Shown: positions 3,922 through 62,005, numbered from the stretch's first letter. The stretch is DNA of 64,000 nucleotides from Oscillospiraceae bacterium (GCA_015067315.1 SVMR01000009.1:16815-80814), one strand, 5' to 3'. Notes: generated by a model not told the origin, from the sequence alone. Numbers and translations are program-made.

Positions 3922-3937
3922 AAATTATCTTCCTTTC

Positions 3938-3985
3938 AGCCTTCCCATTGATGGGAAGGTGTCGCCCAAGGCGACGGATGAGGTT
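3938..3985 (-). repeat. hairpin-repeat family, solo B module (reverse orientation), ruvC-ruvA intercistronic
   Basis: The reverse complement reads aacCTCATCCGTCgcc-ttgg-ggcgaCACCttccc-atcaat-gggaaggct. This is the same layout as the B modules at 14207-14259 and 43878-43932. Confidence 0.8.
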
Positions 3986-4014
3986 TTGAATGCAAAAGCA
4001 TCCGTCATTCCTTT

Positions 4015-8976: not shown

Positions 8977-9087
8977 GCGCCCCTTGTTAAAGGGGAGAGG
9001 GCCACGAAGTGGCGAGGGGATTCTTTTACAAAAAATCCTCCGCCTTCGCCGCAAACGGCGAATCCACCTTTCTTTTGTAAGAGAGGC
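8977..9087 (+). repeat. hairpin-repeat family, short form (R1)
   Basis: Hairpins are cccctt/aagggg, gccac/gtggc, ggggatt/aatcctcc and ttcgccg/cggcgaa, plus a weak fifth. The first 47 nt are identical to 10980-11026. Confidence 0.85.
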
Positions 9088-9103
9088 TTATGGCTTTTTC
9101 TTC

Positions 9104-9179: not shown

Positions 9180-9475
9180 GTTGTTAATATATTATAACGC
9201 GTTGACCGGGAGAGTAGGTTTTATTTTTCCGAAAAGAGAGGAAAAGCCATCGGGCTGAAAGCTTTTCCGCGGATTAAAATTTTTCCGAAGTTCACCCGCG
9301 AGCGGTTTTGCTGAAAAGATTTTTCCCATTAGGCAAAAACGGGCTGCTCCGTTAAAAGCAATTTAAGTGCCCGGCGGTTTTTTATCGTCGGGAATGCGGG
9401 TGGTACCGCGGAGAATTTTTTTCGTTTATGAGTCTTCGTCCCAAATTTGCGGCTTTTGGGCGGAGCTTTTTTTAT
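9180..9475 (+). promoter_or_regulatory. T-box leader (Phe specifier)
   Basis: Conserved T-box sequence aatgcGGGTGGTACCGCGg at 9393-9411. Stem I elements (gggagagta, agagag). Candidate specifier TTC followed by A at 9291-9294. Terminator-like hairpin plus T run at 9437-9473, directly upstream of pheS. Confidence 0.8.
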
Positions 9476-10582: not shown

Positions 10583-10978
10583 ATGACCAGCAGAAAAGAA
10601 CTTTCCGAGCTTACTCTCCGTTTCCAGGCAAGAACCCTTAATATTTACCGCAAGCTTTTCTTCGATCTTCAGGAAAGGGATTATTCCGTTGAACTCCGCG
10701 ACAGAGCCGCAAAGCTTGCAAAAGCAATCAAGGAAGAAAATTACACCGAAGCAAAAAGCCAGGCCGACAACATCACCTATCTTTTTAAGCTTGCTTTCCA
10801 GGCAAACCTCATCCTCCCGACAGTTTATCAGGGACTTGCGATTGACGGAATGACCCTTTCCGCAACCATTGAGGAAGCCATAAACGGTGAAATCGGTCCC
10901 GACCCGGAACCGGAAATCATCCCTGTTGAAAAAATCCCCGAGGCTGTAAGAAAATATATCCCCGGCGGCGAAAAATAA
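10583..10978 (+). CDS. hypothetical helical protein, possibly a degenerate four-helix-bundle (23S rRNA IVS protein-like) fold
   Basis: 131 aa. Strong RBS AGGGAGGAG 8 nt upstream. Helical heptad-like sequence and a Pro/Glu-rich tail. The fold assignment is only a pattern impression. Confidence 0.6.
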   Translation: MTSRKELSELTLRFQARTLNIYRKLFFDLQERDYSVELRDRAAKLAKAIKEENYTEAKSQADNITYLFKLAFQANLILPTVYQGLAIDGMTLSATIEEAINGEIGPDPEPEIIPVEKIPEAVRKYIPGGEK

Positions 10979-10979
10979 A

Positions 10980-11109
10980 GCGCCCCTTGTTAAAGGGGAG
11001 AGGGCCACGAAGTGGCGAGGGGATTCATTACATATCCCGAAATTTTAAAAAGAATCCCTCCGTCATCGTCGCTGCGCTCCGATGACACCTCCCTTTGACA
11101 AGGGAGGCA
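10980..11109 (+). repeat. hairpin-repeat family, short form (R2)
   Basis: Five hairpins: 10983-10998, 11004-11016, 11019-11026 with 11052-11059, 11062-11086, 11088-11107. Confidence 0.88.
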
Positions 11110-11134
11110 GAAATAATGTAAAGAAGGTTAAACA

Positions 11135-13553: not shown

Positions 13554-13563
13554 CTCTAAAAAC

Positions 13564-13588
13564 GGCGGGAGCAAGCCCCCGCCCTACA
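13564..13588 (+). repeat. solitary GC hairpin repeat GGCGGGAGCAAGCCCCCGCCCTACA
   Basis: Near-identical copy at 29508-29532 (1 mismatch). Related stems at 34299-34322, 35987-36007 and 39687-39707. Confidence 0.8.
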
Positions 13589-13608
13589 TTATTTCAGGAG
13601 GTAACTTT

Positions 13609-14118
13609 ATGGAAGCTATGGAAAATCTTCTTACAAGAAGAAGCTGCAGAAACTATAAACCCAAACAGGTTCCGGACGAACTTCTCGATAAGGTTCTTGA
13701 AGCGGGAACTTTTGCCGCAAGCGGAATGAACCGCCAGAACACTTTTCTCGTTGCGGTCCGCGAAAAAGAAACCCGCGACCTTCTTTCAAAAATCAATGCC
13801 GGAGTTATGGAAAGGGAAGGCGATCCTTTCTATGGCGCGCCTTGCGTAATCGTTGTTCTTGCGGCGCCGGATATGACCTATCTTGAAGACGGAAGTCTTG
13901 TTATGGGAAATCTTATGAACGCCGCCCATGCTCTCGGACTCGGTTCCTGCTGGATTCACAGAGCAAAACAGACCTTTGAACTCCCGGAGGGAAAAGAACT
14001 GCTTAAAAAATGGGGTCTTCCGGAAAACCTTATCGGAATCGGAAACTGCATCCTCGGTTTTGAAGCGGAAACCCCCGCGGAAAAACCCCGAAAAGAAGGA
14101 AGAATAATAAAAATTTAA
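13609..14118 (+). CDS. nitroreductase family protein
   Basis: 169 aa. N-terminus LLTRRSCRNYKPKQVPDELLDKVLEAG is typical of the family. Confidence 0.85.
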   Translation: MEAMENLLTRRSCRNYKPKQVPDELLDKVLEAGTFAASGMNRQNTFLVAVREKETRDLLSKINAGVMEREGDPFYGAPCVIVVLAAPDMTYLEDGSLVMGNLMNAAHALGLGSCWIHRAKQTFELPEGKELLKKWGLPENLIGIGNCILGFEAETPAEKPRKEGRIIKI

Positions 14119-14119
14119 C

Positions 14120-14259
14120 TGCTCCTCGGAGGAGGAGCTGTCACCGAAGGTGACTGAGGAGGGATATCCCCGATAAATTGTGATGAGCGCTCCGCGTTAC
14201 CTTATAATCCCTCATCCGTCATTTGCTTTGCAAATGCCACCTTCCCCTCTGGGAAGGCT
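14120..14259 (+). repeat. hairpin-repeat family, short form (R4)
   Basis: Hairpins: gctcctc/gaggagc, gtcacc/ggtgac, gaggagggat/atccctcatc, catttgc/gcaaatg, ccttccc/gggaagg. Confidence 0.85.
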
Positions 14260-14293
14260 TAAAAAAATCCCTGCCTTCCGGCAGGGATTTTTT
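14260..14293. terminator. bidirectional rho-independent terminator (nitroreductase / amidohydrolase, convergent)
   Basis: Hairpin aaatccctgcc-ttcc-ggcagggattt with an A run 5' and a T run 3'. Confidence 0.85.
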
Positions 14294-25204: not shown

Positions 25205-25207
25205 ATC

Positions 25208-25336
25208 GCCTCCCTTGCCTAAAGGGAGGGGGACCGTTGCCGTATGGCACGGTGGAGGGATTCTTTAAGCGGAATCCCCCCGTCTTTATTAAATGCAGGC
25301 GTTTAATAAATCCGGTTCCCTTGCCTAAAAGGAACC
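25208..25336 (+). repeat. hairpin-repeat family, short form (R5)
   Basis: Hairpins: cctccctt/aagggagg, accgttgcc/ggcacggt, gagggattc/gaatccc, tttattaaa/tttaataaa, ggttccctt/aaggaacc. Confidence 0.88.
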
Positions 25337-29471: not shown

Positions 29472-29507
29472 TTGACAGCAAATGCAATTTGATGTAAAAT
29501 GAATAGC

Positions 29508-29532
29508 GGCGGGAGCAAGCTCCCGCCCTACA
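29508..29532 (+). repeat. solitary GC hairpin repeat GGCGGGAGCAAGCTCCCGCCCTACA
   Basis: Copy of 13564-13588. Lies between ynbB-like gene and tRNA-Leu. Confidence 0.8.
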
Positions 29533-29545
29533 TTTTTAAAAATCC

Positions 29546-29628
29546 GCGGGTATGGCGGAATTGGCAGACGCGCCAGACTTAGGATCTGGTGTTCACACGT
29601 GCAGGTTCGACCCCTGTTACCCGCACCA
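29546..29628 (+). tRNA. tRNA-Leu (anticodon TAG)
   Basis: Acceptor GCGGGTA/TACCCGC. Anticodon stem CCAGA/TCTGG with loop CTTAGGA. Long variable arm. T-loop TTCGACC. Encoded CCA. 83 nt. Confidence 0.9.
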
Positions 29629-34295: not shown

Positions 34296-34328
34296 GTAAC
34301 GGGCGACCATTGCGGTCGCCCGTTTTTC
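34296..34328 (+). terminator. rho-independent terminator of the ABC operon (stem related to the GC hairpin repeat)
   Basis: Hairpin acgggcgacc-attgc-ggtcgcccgt followed by TTTTTCTTTTT. Confidence 0.8.
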
Positions 34329-35802: not shown

Positions 35803-36206
35803 GCCCCCTTGCCTAAAGGGGGCTGTCACGCTTTTAAGAACAGGTGCGTGACTGGGGGATTCTTGTATAGATTACCGGTTGTTTTTAAATTGGACGGGGT
35901 TAACACCTCATCCGTCACGCTTTATTCTTGCGGCGCGACACCCTCCCCTCAAGGGGAAGGCTAACCCTCCGGGAATCCTTTTTTGCGGGCGACCACAAGG
36001 GTCGCCCCTACGGAGTTCTAATTAACTTTCTGCTTTACATTTAAAAGAATCCCTCCACCATCTTCGATGGTCCCCCCAACTCTTGCGGTACCCAAAATAT
36101 TCTGCGGCATACGCCTTGAATATTTTGACCGCGGCGCGCCAAACCCTGCTCGCTTCATCGTCCACAGGACGCGCTTCACAGGCTTTACTCTTTAGGCAAG
36201 GGAGCC
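35803..36206 (+). repeat. hairpin-repeat family, long foldback form (R8)
   Basis: Left end H1-H2-tgggggattc (35803-35862). Internal modules follow, including cctcatccgtc..., cctcccct/ggggaagg and gggcgacc/gggtcgccc. The right end is the left end inverted: gaatccctcc-accatc/gatggt (36047-36071), then a 130-nt arm (36077-36206) ending in an inverted H1. Confidence 0.85.
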
Positions 36207-36214
36207 TTGATATG

Positions 36215-39544: not shown

Positions 39545-39876
39545 GCCCCCTTGCCTAAAGGGGGCTGGATTTTTTAACCGCTTGCGGTTAAAAAAGACTG
39601 GGGGATTCTGTATGGATTACCGGCTGTTTTAAATTGGACGGGGTTGACACCTCATCCGTCACGCCCTCCGGGTTCCTTTTTTGCGGGCGACCACATAGGG
39701 TCGCCCCTACTGCATTTAAATGAATCCCCCCGCCACTTCGTGGCCCTCCCAACTCTTGCGGTACCCAAAATATTCTGCGGCATACGCCTTGAATATTTTG
39801 ACCGCGGCGCCAAACCCTGCTCGCTTCATCGTCCACAGGACGCGCTTCACAGGCTTTGCTCTTTAGGCAAGGGGGG
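39545..39876 (+). repeat. hairpin-repeat family, long foldback form (R9)
   Basis: Same module order as 35803-36206. Terminal 15-nt inverted repeat cccccttgcctaaag. The right arm 39750-39876 is nearly identical to 36077-36206. Confidence 0.88.
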
Positions 39877-39904
39877 CTTTCCTGCAACATTTTGCATTCT
39901 GCAT

Positions 39905-43811: not shown

Positions 43812-43877
43812 TTATTTTGTCCCCCTCTTTATCACAGGATTCGTATGCAGTAAAAATATAACGCCGCTTTGCGGCTA

Positions 43878-43932
43878 CATCTCATCCGTCATTTCCTTAC
43901 GGAAACGACACCTTCCCCTCAAGGGGAAGGCT
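43878..43932 (+). repeat. hairpin-repeat family, solo B module (R10)
   Basis: catCTCATCCGTCatttcc-ttac-ggaaacgaCACCttcccct-caa-ggggaaggct. Confidence 0.8.
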
Positions 43933-44011
43933 ATTATATATATTATAGCGCATTTTTCGGCGGAATAGTTAACACATCTTGAACATTTTTCGGATTTTTT
44001 CATAATTTCTC

Positions 44012-47382: not shown

Positions 47383-48630
47383 TCAGTCGTCAATGCGTTT
47401 TCTGCCGATGATGAAAAGACCCACAGCAGCGCCAACAAGAACGATGAGAAGAACGATGATGATCCATGCCCAGATCGGAACGCCGCCTTTTTCTTCGGGT
47501 TCTTCAACTTCTCCGCCTATTACGATAATTTCTTCTTCGGAAGAAGATTCGGAAGAATCGGTAATTTCTTCCTCAGAAGAGGATTCGGAAGAAATGGGGA
47601 GTTCTTCCTCGGAAGAAGAATCGGAAGAAACGGGGAGTTCTTCTTCGGAAGAGGATTCGGAAGAAACGGGAGGTTCCGGTTCGGAAGAAGAGGAAGAGCT
47701 GGAAACCGGTTCTTCAACCTTTTCGTTTACTGTTACGTCAAAAGTCGCGGTTTTTGCTTTTTCGCCTTCGCCGTAAGTTACGGTTACGGTCTGGGTTCCC
47801 GCTTCGTCGAATTTTGTAACGTCGGTTTTAAAACCTTCGGTAATGTCTTCTGCGCTTCCGTCGCCTTTATGAAGGCGGACGGTCATTCCGGTTGTATCAA
47901 GATTTTCGCCCACGGTATAGGTGAGTTTTTCCGGTTTTTTGAAAATTTCGATTCTGAGAATGTCATTGGGATTTGCGTATTCGAATTTTACGCGGAAGTG
48001 ATCCTCGAAAAGCTTGAGATCGCCGTTCTGGTTATAGGGCGCTTTGAGATATACAACAACGTTCTGCGCTTCGTCGGAAGTGAAAACCGCGGGTTCGACC
48101 CAGCATAATTCGGTTACGTCAATATCCTTCGGCTCGTACATATCGGTTTCTTTGTTGAACTTATAGACTGTTGCAATTACTTTAAGTCCGGTGAGGTCAA
48201 CGGTATCGCCGAGATAATAAACAAGTTTATCGGGCCATTTGTAAATACTCATGGAATGAACGTAATCAAAGGGAGATTCTTCGCCCACAACCACGGTGTA
48301 ATCGATTTTTTCAACAACGGTTCCGTCTTCTTTTTTATAAGTTACAGAAAAATTATAGGTTCCGGCTTTTGTGGGGGTTCCGGAAAGGGTCATTTTGAAA
48401 ACATAATCGCCGAAGGTGTTTTTATATGCCCAGGTTCCGGAAAGTTTCATTCCTTCCGGAACGTTTCCGCTTTTGGAAAAGGTTTTTGCGCCGAGAACGG
48501 TTTCGATTACGCTGTCAAATTCAAGACCAACATATGCGCCTTTTATTTCTGTTGCAGCCATTGCCTGTACCGGAACAAGCAATACTATCATAAGAACAGC
48601 AAGAAAAGCGCTGAAAATTCTTTTTTTCAT
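47383..48630 (-). CDS. cell-surface protein with Ig-like (Big_3-type) domains, Ser/Glu-rich stalk and C-terminal membrane anchor
   Basis: 415 aa. Signal peptide ending VQAMAA. Repeated pattern P(D/E)KLxYxxG(D/E)xxDxxG(L/M). Stalk of four SSESSSEEE units. C-terminal TM helix plus GRKRIDD. No LPXTG motif. Confidence 0.75.
   Translation of the reverse strand: MKKRIFSAFLAVLMIVLLVPVQAMAATEIKGAYVGLEFDSVIETVLGAKTFSKSGNVPEGMKLSGTWAYKNTFGDYVFKMTLSGTPTKAGTYNFSVTYKKEDGTVVEKIDYTVVVGEESPFDYVHSMSIYKWPDKLVYYLGDTVDLTGLKVIATVYKFNKETDMYEPKDIDVTELCWVEPAVFTSDEAQNVVVYLKAPYNQNGDLKLFEDHFRVKFEYANPNDILRIEIFKKPEKLTYTVGENLDTTGMTVRLHKGDGSAEDITEGFKTDVTKFDEAGTQTVTVTYGEGEKAKTATFDVTVNEKVEEPVSSSSSSSEPEPPVSSESSSEEELPVSSDSSSEEELPISSESSSEEEITDSSESSSEEEIIVIGGEVEEPEEKGGVPIWAWIIIVLLIVLVGAAVGLFIIGRKRIDD
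47529..47672 (-). repeat. in-frame 36-bp tandem repeat, about 4 units, inside the surface-protein gene
   Basis: The DNA period of 36 nt encodes PPVSSESSSEEE / LPVSSDSSSEEE / LPISSESSSEEE / ITDSSESSSEEE. Boundaries are approximate. Confidence 0.8.
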
Positions 48631-50226: not shown

Positions 50227-50763
50227 TTATTTTGTATAAAGCTTCACTCCGAACTCCCCGTCAACGGAAGGAACCCGAACGGAAATAAGCTCCTCGCGCG
50301 AGGTCGGAATGTTTTTGCCCACAAAATCCGGGCGGATCGGAAGTTCCCGGTGACCTCTGTCAATAACCGCCGCAAGCTGAATAAAGGCCGGCCTTCCCTG
50401 CTTCAAAAGACAGTCGATGGCGGCTCTTGTTGTTCTTCCGGTGTGTATTACGTCGTCAACAAGAACTATCGTTTTTCCCGTTACGTCAAAAGGAAGATCC
50501 GCCCCGGTTATTTTCGGATCGACGGAGCTGTGGTCTATGTCGTCGCGGTAAAAACTGATGTCGATCGTTCCGACGGGAACTTCTTTCCCTTCAATCGCAA
50601 GAATATTTTCCCGGATTATTTCCGCAATCGGAACGCCGCGGGTTTTTATTCCCACAAGGCAAAGATTTTCCGTTCCGCCGTTGCGTTCAAGAATCTGGTG
50701 GGAAATCCTTATCAGGCAGCGTTTTACTGCGTCGGAATCCATAAGGTCGGATTTGAATTCCAT
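50227..50763 (-). CDS. pyrR: bifunctional pyrimidine operon regulator / uracil phosphoribosyltransferase PyrR
   Basis: 178 aa from MEFKSDLMDSD with RBS GAAAGGTGG. PRPP motif VLVDDVIHTGRT. The ORF-track start at 50895 is a spurious extension through the leader. Confidence 0.92.
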   Translation of the reverse strand: MEFKSDLMDSDAVKRCLIRISHQILERNGGTENLCLVGIKTRGVPIAEIIRENILAIEGKEVPVGTIDISFYRDDIDHSSVDPKITGADLPFDVTGKTIVLVDDVIHTGRTTRAAIDCLLKQGRPAFIQLAAVIDRGHRELPIRPDFVGKNIPTSREELISVRVPSVDGEFGVKLYTK

Positions 50764-50897
50764 TTTATAACCACCTTTCCGAAAAACAAAAAAGGTTCCG
50801 CCGATTAACCGGCAGAACCTTAAAACTCCAGTTTTGACATAAATTTTCGGGGTTTCGATCTTGCCGGTCTCTCTGTACCAATCTTTAAAGATCATTT
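50764..50897 (-). promoter_or_regulatory. PyrR-binding transcription attenuator (pyr leader)
   Basis: The minus strand reads gguaCAGAGAGaccgGCAAGa (50860-50880), close to the PyrR binding-loop consensus UCCAGAGAGGCUUGCAAG. It is followed by terminator hairpin ggttctgccg-gttaat-cggcggaacc plus a T run (50783-50819). Confidence 0.8.
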
Positions 50898-61824: not shown

Positions 61825-62005
61825 GGGGATTCTTTTGAAATTGCCGCTCGATTTTTACCTCCCCTCAAGGGGAGGTAAAGCCGCCCGTTTTGTAATCGGA
61901 CGGGGTTTTCTCTCCCTCAGTCACGGCAAAGCCGCGACAGCTCCCTCGTCAGAGGGAGCTTGCCCTCCGGGGAGCCTTTTTGCGGAACGGTCAGAAAAAT
62001 CCCCT
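61825..62005 (+). repeat. hairpin-repeat family, intermediate form (R11)
   Basis: gggggattctttt (left) pairs with agaaaaatcccc (right). This helix encloses hairpins cctcccct/aggggagg, cccgt/acggg, gtcacggc/gccgcgac and agctccct/agggagct, plus the ccctccgggg motif shared with the long forms. Confidence 0.8.

Follow-up and report, generated by a model that had tools for sequence, protein, structure and literature searches.

A modular two-hairpin repeat in intergenic DNA of gut Oscillospiraceae and its likeness to tagged REP elements

Repetitive extragenic palindromic (REP) repeats are textbook features of Proteobacteria. Of the other modular intergenic repeats, the Correia elements are marked by inverted repeats at their termini and by duplication of TA. 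One superfamily of REPs is tagged with CGTC and includes dRS3 of Neisseria and RPE-4/6 of Rickettsia (Di Nocera, De Gregorio and Rocco 2013, PMC3733652). Its members are recognized by an unpaired CGTC tag (or TGTC/CCTC), a stem of 8-9 bp that starts with A-T, a loop of 4-5 nt and a CCA 3' tail, and the survey that defined both tagged superfamilies covers eight phyla without mention of Firmicutes/Clostridia (PMC3733652). The subject of this work is the spacer between a 131-aa open reading frame (ORF; orf131) and pheT, at positions 10980-11109 of a 64-kb stretch of DNA from an Oscillospiraceae bacterium (GCA_015067315.1 SVMR01000009.1:16815-80814; this whole stretch is called the window below), together with the repeat family that it represents. 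On balance, we favor the view that the spacer is one copy of a mosaic repeat of the REP/BIME type (BIME, bacterial interspersed mosaic element) that spreads at the DNA level as folded single strands. The assignment to this type is made because of the anatomy of the units, their copy number, their mosaic clustering, the head-to-head dimers, the preference for gene 3' ends and the polymorphism between strains. It is a two-hairpin repeat of this type in a new host group, the Clostridia, and the general category is a familiar one.

Two-hairpin units and their comparison with described repeats

The focal element, at 10980-11109 on the plus strand, is a head-to-head dimer, as seen in the sequence and in its DNA and RNA folds. 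It comprises H1 (10983-10998, cccctt/aagggg), H2 (11004-11016, gccac/gtggc), a closing helix GGGGATTC/GAATCCCT (11019-11026 with 11052-11059) around a variable center (11027-11051), H4 (11062-11086, gtcatcg/cgatgac) and H5 (11088-11107, cctccctt/aagggagg). An earlier note on this DNA had described the spacer as five consecutive hairpins. All of these helices are found where it placed them, and the minimum free energy fold of 10976-11112 as single-stranded DNA consists of exactly H1, H2, the closing helix, H4 and H5 (-29.1 kcal/mol, z = -4.4), with none of 200 shuffles folding as well. The best RNA fold of the spacer (-57.6 kcal/mol, z = -5.4) differs: H2, the closing helix and H4 are retained, whereas H1 and H5, which as near reverse complements are able to pair, are joined in a long outer helix. 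The five consecutive hairpins are therefore one of two competing folds. Nor are they five equivalent modules, since the real layout is two inverted two-hairpin units with a closing helix between them (2+1+2).

Copies from other contigs reveal that the repeating entity is a two-hairpin unit of about 55 nt and not the five-hairpin block. Units were searched for with a covariance model, R1, made from 12 of them (ten IMG/VR copies, the window copy at 43872 and one that was edited by hand). The right-hand unit of the focal element (11046-11111, plus strand), with its GAATCCC-TCC-GTC tag, H4, A and H5, is matched with 28.1 bits (E = 7.6e-6), and the diverged left-hand unit (10977-11028, minus strand) weakly, with 5.4 bits. 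It is because the left halves in the window match R1 on the opposite strand that the elements can be recognized as two units placed head to head, in which the paired 5' arms close off the variable center.

Each unit opens with a conserved 5' arm, which reads ACCTCATC in U1 (the canonical subtype) and (G)AATCCCTC in U2; the arm is followed by the tag (C/A)GTC, a variable hairpin, one unpaired A and, at the 3' end, a conserved C-run/G-run hairpin. Written out, U1 reads (G/C)ACC-TCATC-CGTC-[variable hairpin]-G(A/C)C-A-CCTTCCCC-loop-GGGGAAGG-C(T/A), with C-C-G-T-C invariant or nearly so in 59 aligned units, and U2, which includes the dimers of this window, reads (G)AC-AATCCCTC-AGTC-[hairpin]-GAC-AGCTCCCTTTACACAAGGGAGC. 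The TCATC arms of the U1 five-hairpin form face each other and pair as CTGATGAGG/CCTCATC; in the window dimers the arms pair as GGGGATTC/GAATCCCC and the tag is often AGTC. On metagenome contigs, neighboring units most often stand head to head: this holds for 44 of 84 adjacent pairs (with a median gap of 42 nt), whereas 19 pairs are tail-to-tail and 21 are tandem. Many of the head-to-head dimers share a center of about 50 nt with a small conserved hairpin. Some dimers contain CTGATGAGG...GAAAC...GTC, which suggested the hammerhead ribozyme, whose hallmarks are CUGAUGA and GAAA cores with a cleavage triplet at a three-way junction. It was dismissed because CTGATGAGG is one arm of the closing helix with CCTCATC, and no hammerhead model matched the window at E <= 5 or canonical dimers at E <= 1. 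At 1356-1665 of L258 (L-numbers are our labels for loci from other genomes or contigs), five units were also seen in tandem, repeating every 63 nt. The array lies directly upstream of a gene, each unit terminates in the sequence CTATAAGGAAGGAG, which resembles a ribosome binding site (RBS), and an ATG follows the last unit.

The hairpins are constrained in structure. Among 147 distinct copies the variable hairpin is 91% paired and the nearly invariant terminal hairpin 99.7% paired. Both sides have changed in six of eight pairs of the variable hairpin, all four Watson-Crick types occur at the inner positions, and the covariation score of 0.282 exceeds the scores of shuffles (0.063) and of slid registers (0.027 or less). 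The alignment behind this score was fitted to the model, which favors pairing, and the raw sequences agree with it: among 270 units there are 198 distinct variable stems, and 226 (84%) of the variable hairpins have no more than one mismatch. Their length goes from 11 to 33 nt, mostly 15-23, with modes at 15, 17, 19 and 21, and the three central loop bases are TTC or TGC in 132 of the 270. The G and C of the tag are complementary to the 3' G.C in 145 of the 147 copies, the first inner pair is A-T or T-A in 97, and the one common mismatch is at the second pair, where the T of the tag stands unpaired opposite C in 80. The stem is followed by GCCACC in about 60% of units (161 of 270 with C opposite the tag T) and by GACACC in the rest, and the terminal hairpin is followed by CTT or CAA. 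Orthologous copies of one hairpin, gtcaccgaaggtgac in the window and gtcgccgaaggcgac in L129, differ by a compensatory double change. Moreover, 18 of the 62 distinct U2 variable hairpins in all retrieved loci are found base for base in U1 units; therefore, a unit is made of modules (arm, variable hairpin and terminal hairpin) that reassort separately.

Of the known types, the CGTC-tagged superfamily is the closest to these units. The resemblance lies in a short palindrome with a (C)GTC tag (CGTC in U1, AGTC in U2), a 3' tail that contains CCA (the GCCACC mentioned above), the predominance of head-to-head dimers with structured spacers and complementary ends, the location between unidirectional and convergent genes, the coexistence with GTAG REPs, and the lack of a known flanking transposase. 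However, the stems of the units are shorter and far more variable (3-9 inner pairs instead of 8-9), their loops are mostly of 3 nt instead of 4-5, the G and C of the tag can pair with the 3' G(A/C)C, a conserved second hairpin and a conserved 5' arm of 8 nt are obligatory, and the host belongs to the Clostridia. With the REP/BIME elements of E. coli the units share mosaic clusters of inverted palindromic units and other short motifs, an extragenic and transcribed location, and the condition of being a major source of intergenic polymorphism between strains. They differ from them in their two-hairpin build and in a stem that is hypervariable rather than family-specific, and no sequence similarity was detected. 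The modular REP/BIME-type reading proposed in the earlier note is supported by the palindromes, the copy number, the mosaic clustering and the strain polymorphism. As in BOX and Correia/NIME elements, few types of module are combined in variable number in co-transcribed intergenic repeats. The likeness to pneumococcal BOX, which is defined by the sequence modules boxA, boxB and boxC, is one of architecture; we know of no sequence shared with BOX or with the Correia/NIME elements of Neisseria, and the hosts are different.

The same note had suggested that the family may be uncharacterised, and this is consistent with what was found. No family of Rfam 15 covers the repeats, either in the window (gathering score and E <= 5) or in canonical copies on contigs rich in them (gathering score and E <= 1). 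Near matches to Acido-Lenti-1 and Whalefall-1 are single hairpins below threshold, and the REP-derived models naRNA4 and STnc490 match other positions on two related contigs, also below threshold. No description of the family was found in the searchable full-text literature, and subscription papers could hold one.

Turnover, distribution and orientation

The repeat family is real and modular, as the earlier note had claimed from the window alone, and its units are gained, lost and replaced at orthologous sites. In sister species (PheT 93-98% identical), the orf131/pheT spacer contains the window variant in five genomes, a dimer of CTGATGAGG type in four, and a third variant in another four. 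In this third variant, as in species L128, the 56 nt of the left half agree without a difference with the left half of the window element at 25209, which is a different locus. Only one small C-run/G-run hairpin occupies the spacer in three genomes, and nothing does in more distant species. The spacers ruvC/ruvA, yjeF/T-box and nitroreductase/amidohydrolase are likewise each filled, empty or replaced in relatives. A 60-nt insertion is nested inside H1 in L155, a deletion between GAGGAGG repeats is seen in L130, and a GTAG hairpin stands at the position of a window unit in some genomes. Within the window itself, the left halves 8977-9023 and 10980-11026 are identical over 47 nt and the right halves differ. 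As to orf131, which lies between pheS and pheT (10583-10978), its product has no Pfam match and the ORF seems to be restricted to the closer relatives (about 70% PheT identity and above), as judged from the DNA upstream of pheT; in more distant species pheS directly adjoins pheT.

The clearest case comes from two loci unrelated to the window strain, L333 and L334, which are 98.7-99.1% identical over 7.3 kb with a single indel. A composite of 276 nt in L333 (6760-7035), which includes a five-hairpin element, corresponds to one base in L334 (5694). The right edge of the block is exactly at the foot of the hairpin CCCCCCTCATAAATGAGGGGGG, which is present in both alleles. No target-site duplication, as expected at the borders of a miniature inverted-repeat transposable element, is found at the junctions (ctctcg|ggggg... 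and ...ggggca|cccccc); the terminal inverted repeats and TA duplication that mark Correia elements are not seen there either. In intergenic DNA, then, whole blocks appear and disappear, replace one another or become inserted in other copies, with one block edge at the foot of a terminal hairpin, and the same hairpin is found alone at empty sites.

The host belongs to uncultured Oscillospiraceae of ruminant hindgut assemblies. An identical PheT is encoded on contigs of ENA and JGI metagenome assemblies, and species with 93-98% identical PheT are represented by metagenome-assembled genomes from cattle, sheep, goat, deer and buffalo. Among 78 related genomes, of which 1.26 Mb around pheT were covered, the units are confined to the closest clade (PheT at least 82% identical). 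Exact-pattern matches to U1 number at least 120 in IMG/VR and at least 120 in a metagenome collection that includes many human-gut assemblies, and those to U2 at least 120 in IMG/VR. BLAST of a unit against GenBank phages gave three weak matches in unannotated human-faecal phage records. R1 detected 229 units in 569 kb of metagenome contigs, and the contigs that carry units have mostly 58-62% G+C. U2 is as widespread as U1, and the unrelated high-GC contig L222 has both subtypes in one mixed cluster with GTAG hairpins, as does 35803-36206 in the window. Further copies are thus abundant in relatives, metagenomes and viral contigs, both in the R1 census and in the pattern scans, so that the absence of other copies, which the earlier note had named as a refutation, clearly does not apply. 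A high copy number together with a position outside genes is also typical of the REP/BIME class.

The orientation of units relative to genes was determined with a codon-usage gene caller on sequences in which the units had been masked, and also by an independent RBS test. On metagenome contigs (L208-L327) no bias was observed, with 11 sense against 15 antisense units overall and 11 against 10 among true singletons; 12 units lie between convergent genes and 2 between divergent ones, so gene 3' ends are favored. Viral contigs (IMG/VR L005-L124 and L336-L452) behave differently. There, single U1 units between co-directional genes are in sense orientation in 72 cases against 10 after de-duplication and in 113 against 8 as singletons, single U2 units in 33 against 3, and the RBS test gave 71 against 14. 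In the first run, which was not de-duplicated, the median distance of viral sense units is 33 nt from the preceding stop codon and 49 nt from the start codon that follows. In the window, units are placed after stop codons but ahead of terminators, or within operons, and in one case past the predicted promoter of yjeF but before its RBS; from such positions it follows that they must be transcribed. They are not intrinsic terminators themselves: the terminal hairpin has CTT or CAA directly after it and not a T-run, the true terminators are located further downstream, and no terminator-like site of the plus strand was found inside 10980-11109.

Window copies, GTAG hairpins and RAYT genes

Nine loci with about 18 units, some 1.5 kb in total, make up 2.4% of the window. 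The earlier note had seen the layout or its sub-modules at eight loci besides the focal one, and the same parts are indeed present there, as found with the R1 matches and with a pattern for the right half, TCATCCGTC..ACCYTCCC..GGGARGG, which has four matches in the window and none in shuffles. All nine loci lie between called genes, in agreement with the note's statement that every copy is intergenic. Its density of about one locus per 5 kb holds only if GTAG hairpins are counted, since the nine loci alone amount to about one per 7 kb, and no regular spacing along the window was seen. R1 matches at E <= 8e-6 are 43872-43934, 35898-35964, 3936-3991 (minus strand), 14202-14261, 61907-61963 and 11046-11111; right halves and the solitary units 43872 and 3936 range from 28 to 61 bits, and the model is weaker on the left halves, which lie on the opposite strand, and on 9026-9090.

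Two of the loci are solitary canonical units. That at 43872-43934 (plus strand, 61.4 bits, E = 1e-14) is preceded by a small hairpin GCCGCTTTGCGGC and TAC, and that at 3936-3991 (minus strand, 54.8 bits) lies within the ruvC-ruvA operon, as placed by the gene calls, in sense to it; at the orthologous site, L125 and L133 have no element, and L128, L155 and L184 have a GTAG hairpin instead. Three other head-to-head dimers are described on the plus strand. The dimer at 8977-9087 (R1 at 9026-9090, 12.8 bits), whose orthologous site is empty in L133, L135 and L184, is placed in the 5' untranslated region (UTR) of the divergent, minus-strand yjeF, between predicted promoter and RBS, because of a promoter-like site of that strand at 9131-9104. 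The next, 14120-14259, lies between the stop codon of a nitroreductase gene and the terminator (R1 at 14202-14261 on the plus strand, 47 bits, and at 14114-14170 on the minus strand, 19.4 bits), and its site is empty in L125 and L126. The third, 25208-25336, occupies the spacer between a Mur ligase and a peptidase M42 gene (R1 at 25205-25266, minus strand, 10 bits).

The remaining loci are composites, also on the plus strand. The one at 35803-36206, resolved with R1 (57 bits) and a GTAG scan, is formed by a left unit, a canonical unit (35898-35964), a GTAG-type hairpin (35975-36011), a right arm (36047-36073) and a 140-nt tail. Its sister at 39545-39876 lacks 45 nt of the inner unit; the tails of the two are 95% identical and whole modules differ. 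The 140-nt module (36068-36208 and 39741-39879) occurs only in these two large composites, has a reverse-complemented H1 hairpin at its end, and is without relatives among the retrieved loci. A variant composite at 61825-62005 contains units at 61854-61913 (minus strand, 16.4 bits) and 61907-61963 (plus strand, 32.3 bits).

The genes of the window are of housekeeping type (ruvCAB, yjeF, pheST, Mur ligase, peptidases, PEPCK, tsaD etc.), and a Pfam scan of them gave no transposase or integrase domain, so the earlier statement that the window has no transposase stands. Other features of the window were observed in passing. An ordinary T-box leader (9193-9446, 110 bits) precedes pheS. At 50786-50895 (minus strand), a sequence matches a PyrR binding site with 46.2 bits, which is below the threshold of 54. 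It extends over the start of a phosphoribosyltransferase gene (50227-50895, minus strand), downstream of which is a xanthine/uracil permease gene, and may be a real pyrimidine attenuator. A tandem repeat with a 36-nt period (TTCTTCCTCGGAAGAAGA...) is found at 47494-47709, within the gene of a protein with Big_3/He_PIG domains.

GC hairpins followed by CTAC (GTAG on the other strand) at 13587, 29531, 36011 and 39710 are GTAG REPs, a separate family that we call R. GTAG is absent from the two-hairpin units, and REPs of the GTAG type are interleaved with them. The earlier note had taken three solitary GC hairpins as relatives of the five-hairpin element. Those at 13564-13588 and 29508-29532 belong instead to R, the first as GTAGGGCGGGGGCTTGCTCCCGCC at 13558-13589 and the second at 29502-29533, just upstream of a tRNA gene, both on the minus strand; the third (34299-34322, plus strand) is terminator-like, with the stem GGGCGAC/GTCGCCC of the R modules at 36011 and 39710 followed by a T-run. 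The tRNA gene itself (29546-29625, 56 bits) is overrun by the EamA gene call of one assembly (339 vs 300 aa), the start of which is therefore probably mis-called.

A motif search of all retrieved DNA found one gene of the REP-associated tyrosine transposase (RAYT) type, on L209 (7761-8343, minus strand); the window has none. The L209 gene scores 72.8 bits against NCBIfam REP_Tyr_transpos, which has a cut-off of 80, and GTAG hairpins and units are clustered 2.3 kb away from it. Its homologues are single-copy and wedged in housekeeping operons, such as ybeY-era in Intestinimonas massiliensis and uvrB-uvrA in Ca. Onthomonas (and in L209, judged from the flanking sequence); no relatives were found in viral contigs. 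RAYT genes were also located at 10001-10513 of L329, 10001-10486 of L328, 10001-10501 of L330 and 1137-1631 of L333. In the six genes inspected, the coding sequence includes a GTAG hairpin, detected in both orientations in L209, L329 and L330 and in one orientation in L328, L333 and L334, and this in-frame hairpin is identical to copies dispersed on the same contig. The forward copy encodes an N-terminal VGAxxxRP or RRGAHCAP and the reverse copy GRxxxAPT just after the HUH histidines, and the motif pairs checked among 120 RAYT homologues co-vary as reverse-complement translations of one hairpin. A description of such a hairpin pair was not found in the literature consulted. The type-1 GTAG hairpin of the window (GTAGGGGCGACC...GGTCGCCC) is of the same type as those in L330 and L333. 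These results establish that a GTAG-REP/RAYT system exists in this bacterial group.

Several features are shared with REPIN-RAYT systems (Bertels and Rainey 2011; PMC3116915, PMC5581495): inverted doublets are the common unit, and a candidate single-copy Y1 transposase sits among housekeeping genes with hairpins that match the GTAG hairpins of the genome. However, the five-hairpin elements lack GTAG, and no RAYT gene was seen flanked by units. Since the variable hairpins in the two arms of a dimer are not the same, the single long hairpin of a REPIN does not form.

Weighing of the explanations and meaning for the gut Clostridia

The reading that we favor is that elements of the REP/BIME type would spread and reshuffle as folded single-stranded DNA. 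The likeliest agents would be an HUH/Y1 tyrosine transposase with its gene elsewhere in the genome, or else template switching or gene conversion guided by hairpins. An enzyme is made plausible by the GTAG REPs that are interleaved with the units and by the RAYT-type Y1 genes with such hairpins in related Oscillospiraceae contigs. Copies would persist where they are tolerated, namely in 3' UTRs, intercistronic spacers and some 5' UTRs, where they would be co-transcribed and their stable hairpins would be neutral to mildly stabilizing for the mRNA. Several points weigh against it. Neither a target-site duplication nor a clean insertion signature was found, and the block differences could be deletions or gene conversions and not transposition. 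The great diversity of variable stems argues against recent copy-and-paste of whole units. No enzyme is tied to the units themselves, the RAYT genes found here carry or adjoin GTAG hairpins and not units, and the CGTC REPs have no known transposase (PMC3733652). The compensatory change in L129, having arisen in situ, shows that there was selection on the hairpin after insertion, and the strong viral sense bias is not predicted by a purely DNA-level selfish element.

These last two points would be explained if the units were cis-acting RNA elements under selection, with their spread being secondary. Once transcribed in operons and 3' UTRs, the pair of stacked hairpins and the conserved arm, which is rich in pyrimidines, would serve as an exonuclease barrier, a processing site or a translation insulator. 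We consider this unlikely, even if it draws on the viral sense bias of both subtypes and its confirmation by the RBS test, on the closeness of viral sense units to the preceding stop codon, on the strong covariation together with the compensatory change at an orthologous copy, and on the fact that every window copy is in a spacer that is transcribed, with the true terminator still downstream. On metagenome contigs, however, there is no orientation bias, overall or among singletons; in chromosomes the units most often form symmetric head-to-head dimers; sister species and strains can do without particular copies; copies occur also in a 5' UTR and a divergent promoter region; and no Rfam family matches. 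The phage data favor some selection at the RNA level, and spread as DNA is compatible with action as RNA. Quite improbable, in our opinion, is a role as protein-binding or recombination sites in double-stranded or cruciform DNA (like the nucleoid, gyrase or IHF sites that have been proposed for BIMEs, or attC-like). The invariant sequence outside the variable stem, CCTCATCCGTC and CCACCTTCCCC, and the conserved T·C mismatch at the second pair, an irregularity of the kind read by structure-reading proteins, would suit such sites; yet presence varies between close relatives, the copies have no regular spacing in the window, no integrase or recombinase is nearby, and the flanks are syntenic housekeeping genes and not cassettes. 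The least probable explanation, to which we give very little credit, dispenses with mobility altogether: hairpins would arise and decay in place from terminator-like sequences, and shared motifs would reflect convergent constraint. It could account for the solitary C-run/G-run hairpin that is kept at empty sites and for the GC hairpin that exists in both terminator and tagged versions, but not easily for identical halves of 47 and 56 nt at unrelated loci and in different species, for an invariant arm of 11 nt common to contigs of 45-66% G+C, for a block of 276 nt present or absent between strains about 99% identical, or for the exact variable hairpins common to both subtypes.

Beyond the favored reading of a DNA-level REP/BIME-type repeat, a bolder and doubtful proposal can be made, that of an undescribed system across gut Clostridia. 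In it, modules would reassort, insertion would be guided to the foot of a pre-existing terminal hairpin, the units would be serviced by, or co-evolve with, an unusual domesticated RAYT clade that has an in-frame GTAG pair, and phage units would have been co-opted as oriented RNA elements.

The units also have practical consequences for the annotation of these genomes. They lack stop codons in several frames and therefore give rise to spurious or extended ORFs; a call of 100 aa at 39588-39890 (minus strand), across the second copy of the 140-nt module, is present in one assembly and not in another. In addition, the units probably break or confuse short-read assemblies.

Human and ruminant gut Oscillospiraceae and their phages thus prove rich in two kinds of repeat, one of them a two-hairpin relative of the CGTC type and the other of the GTAG type and accompanied by its transposase. 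The breadth of the family, its modular reassortment, the indels that abut hairpins and the orientation bias in phages should be of interest to specialists in repeats. Since the units occur densely here, differ between nearly identical strains and are interspersed with GTAG REPs that are linked to RAYT genes, we think that this is a good lineage in which to seek the enzyme that would mobilize repeats of the CGTC type, and the phage-specific orientation bias offers a handle on whether such repeats act as RNA.

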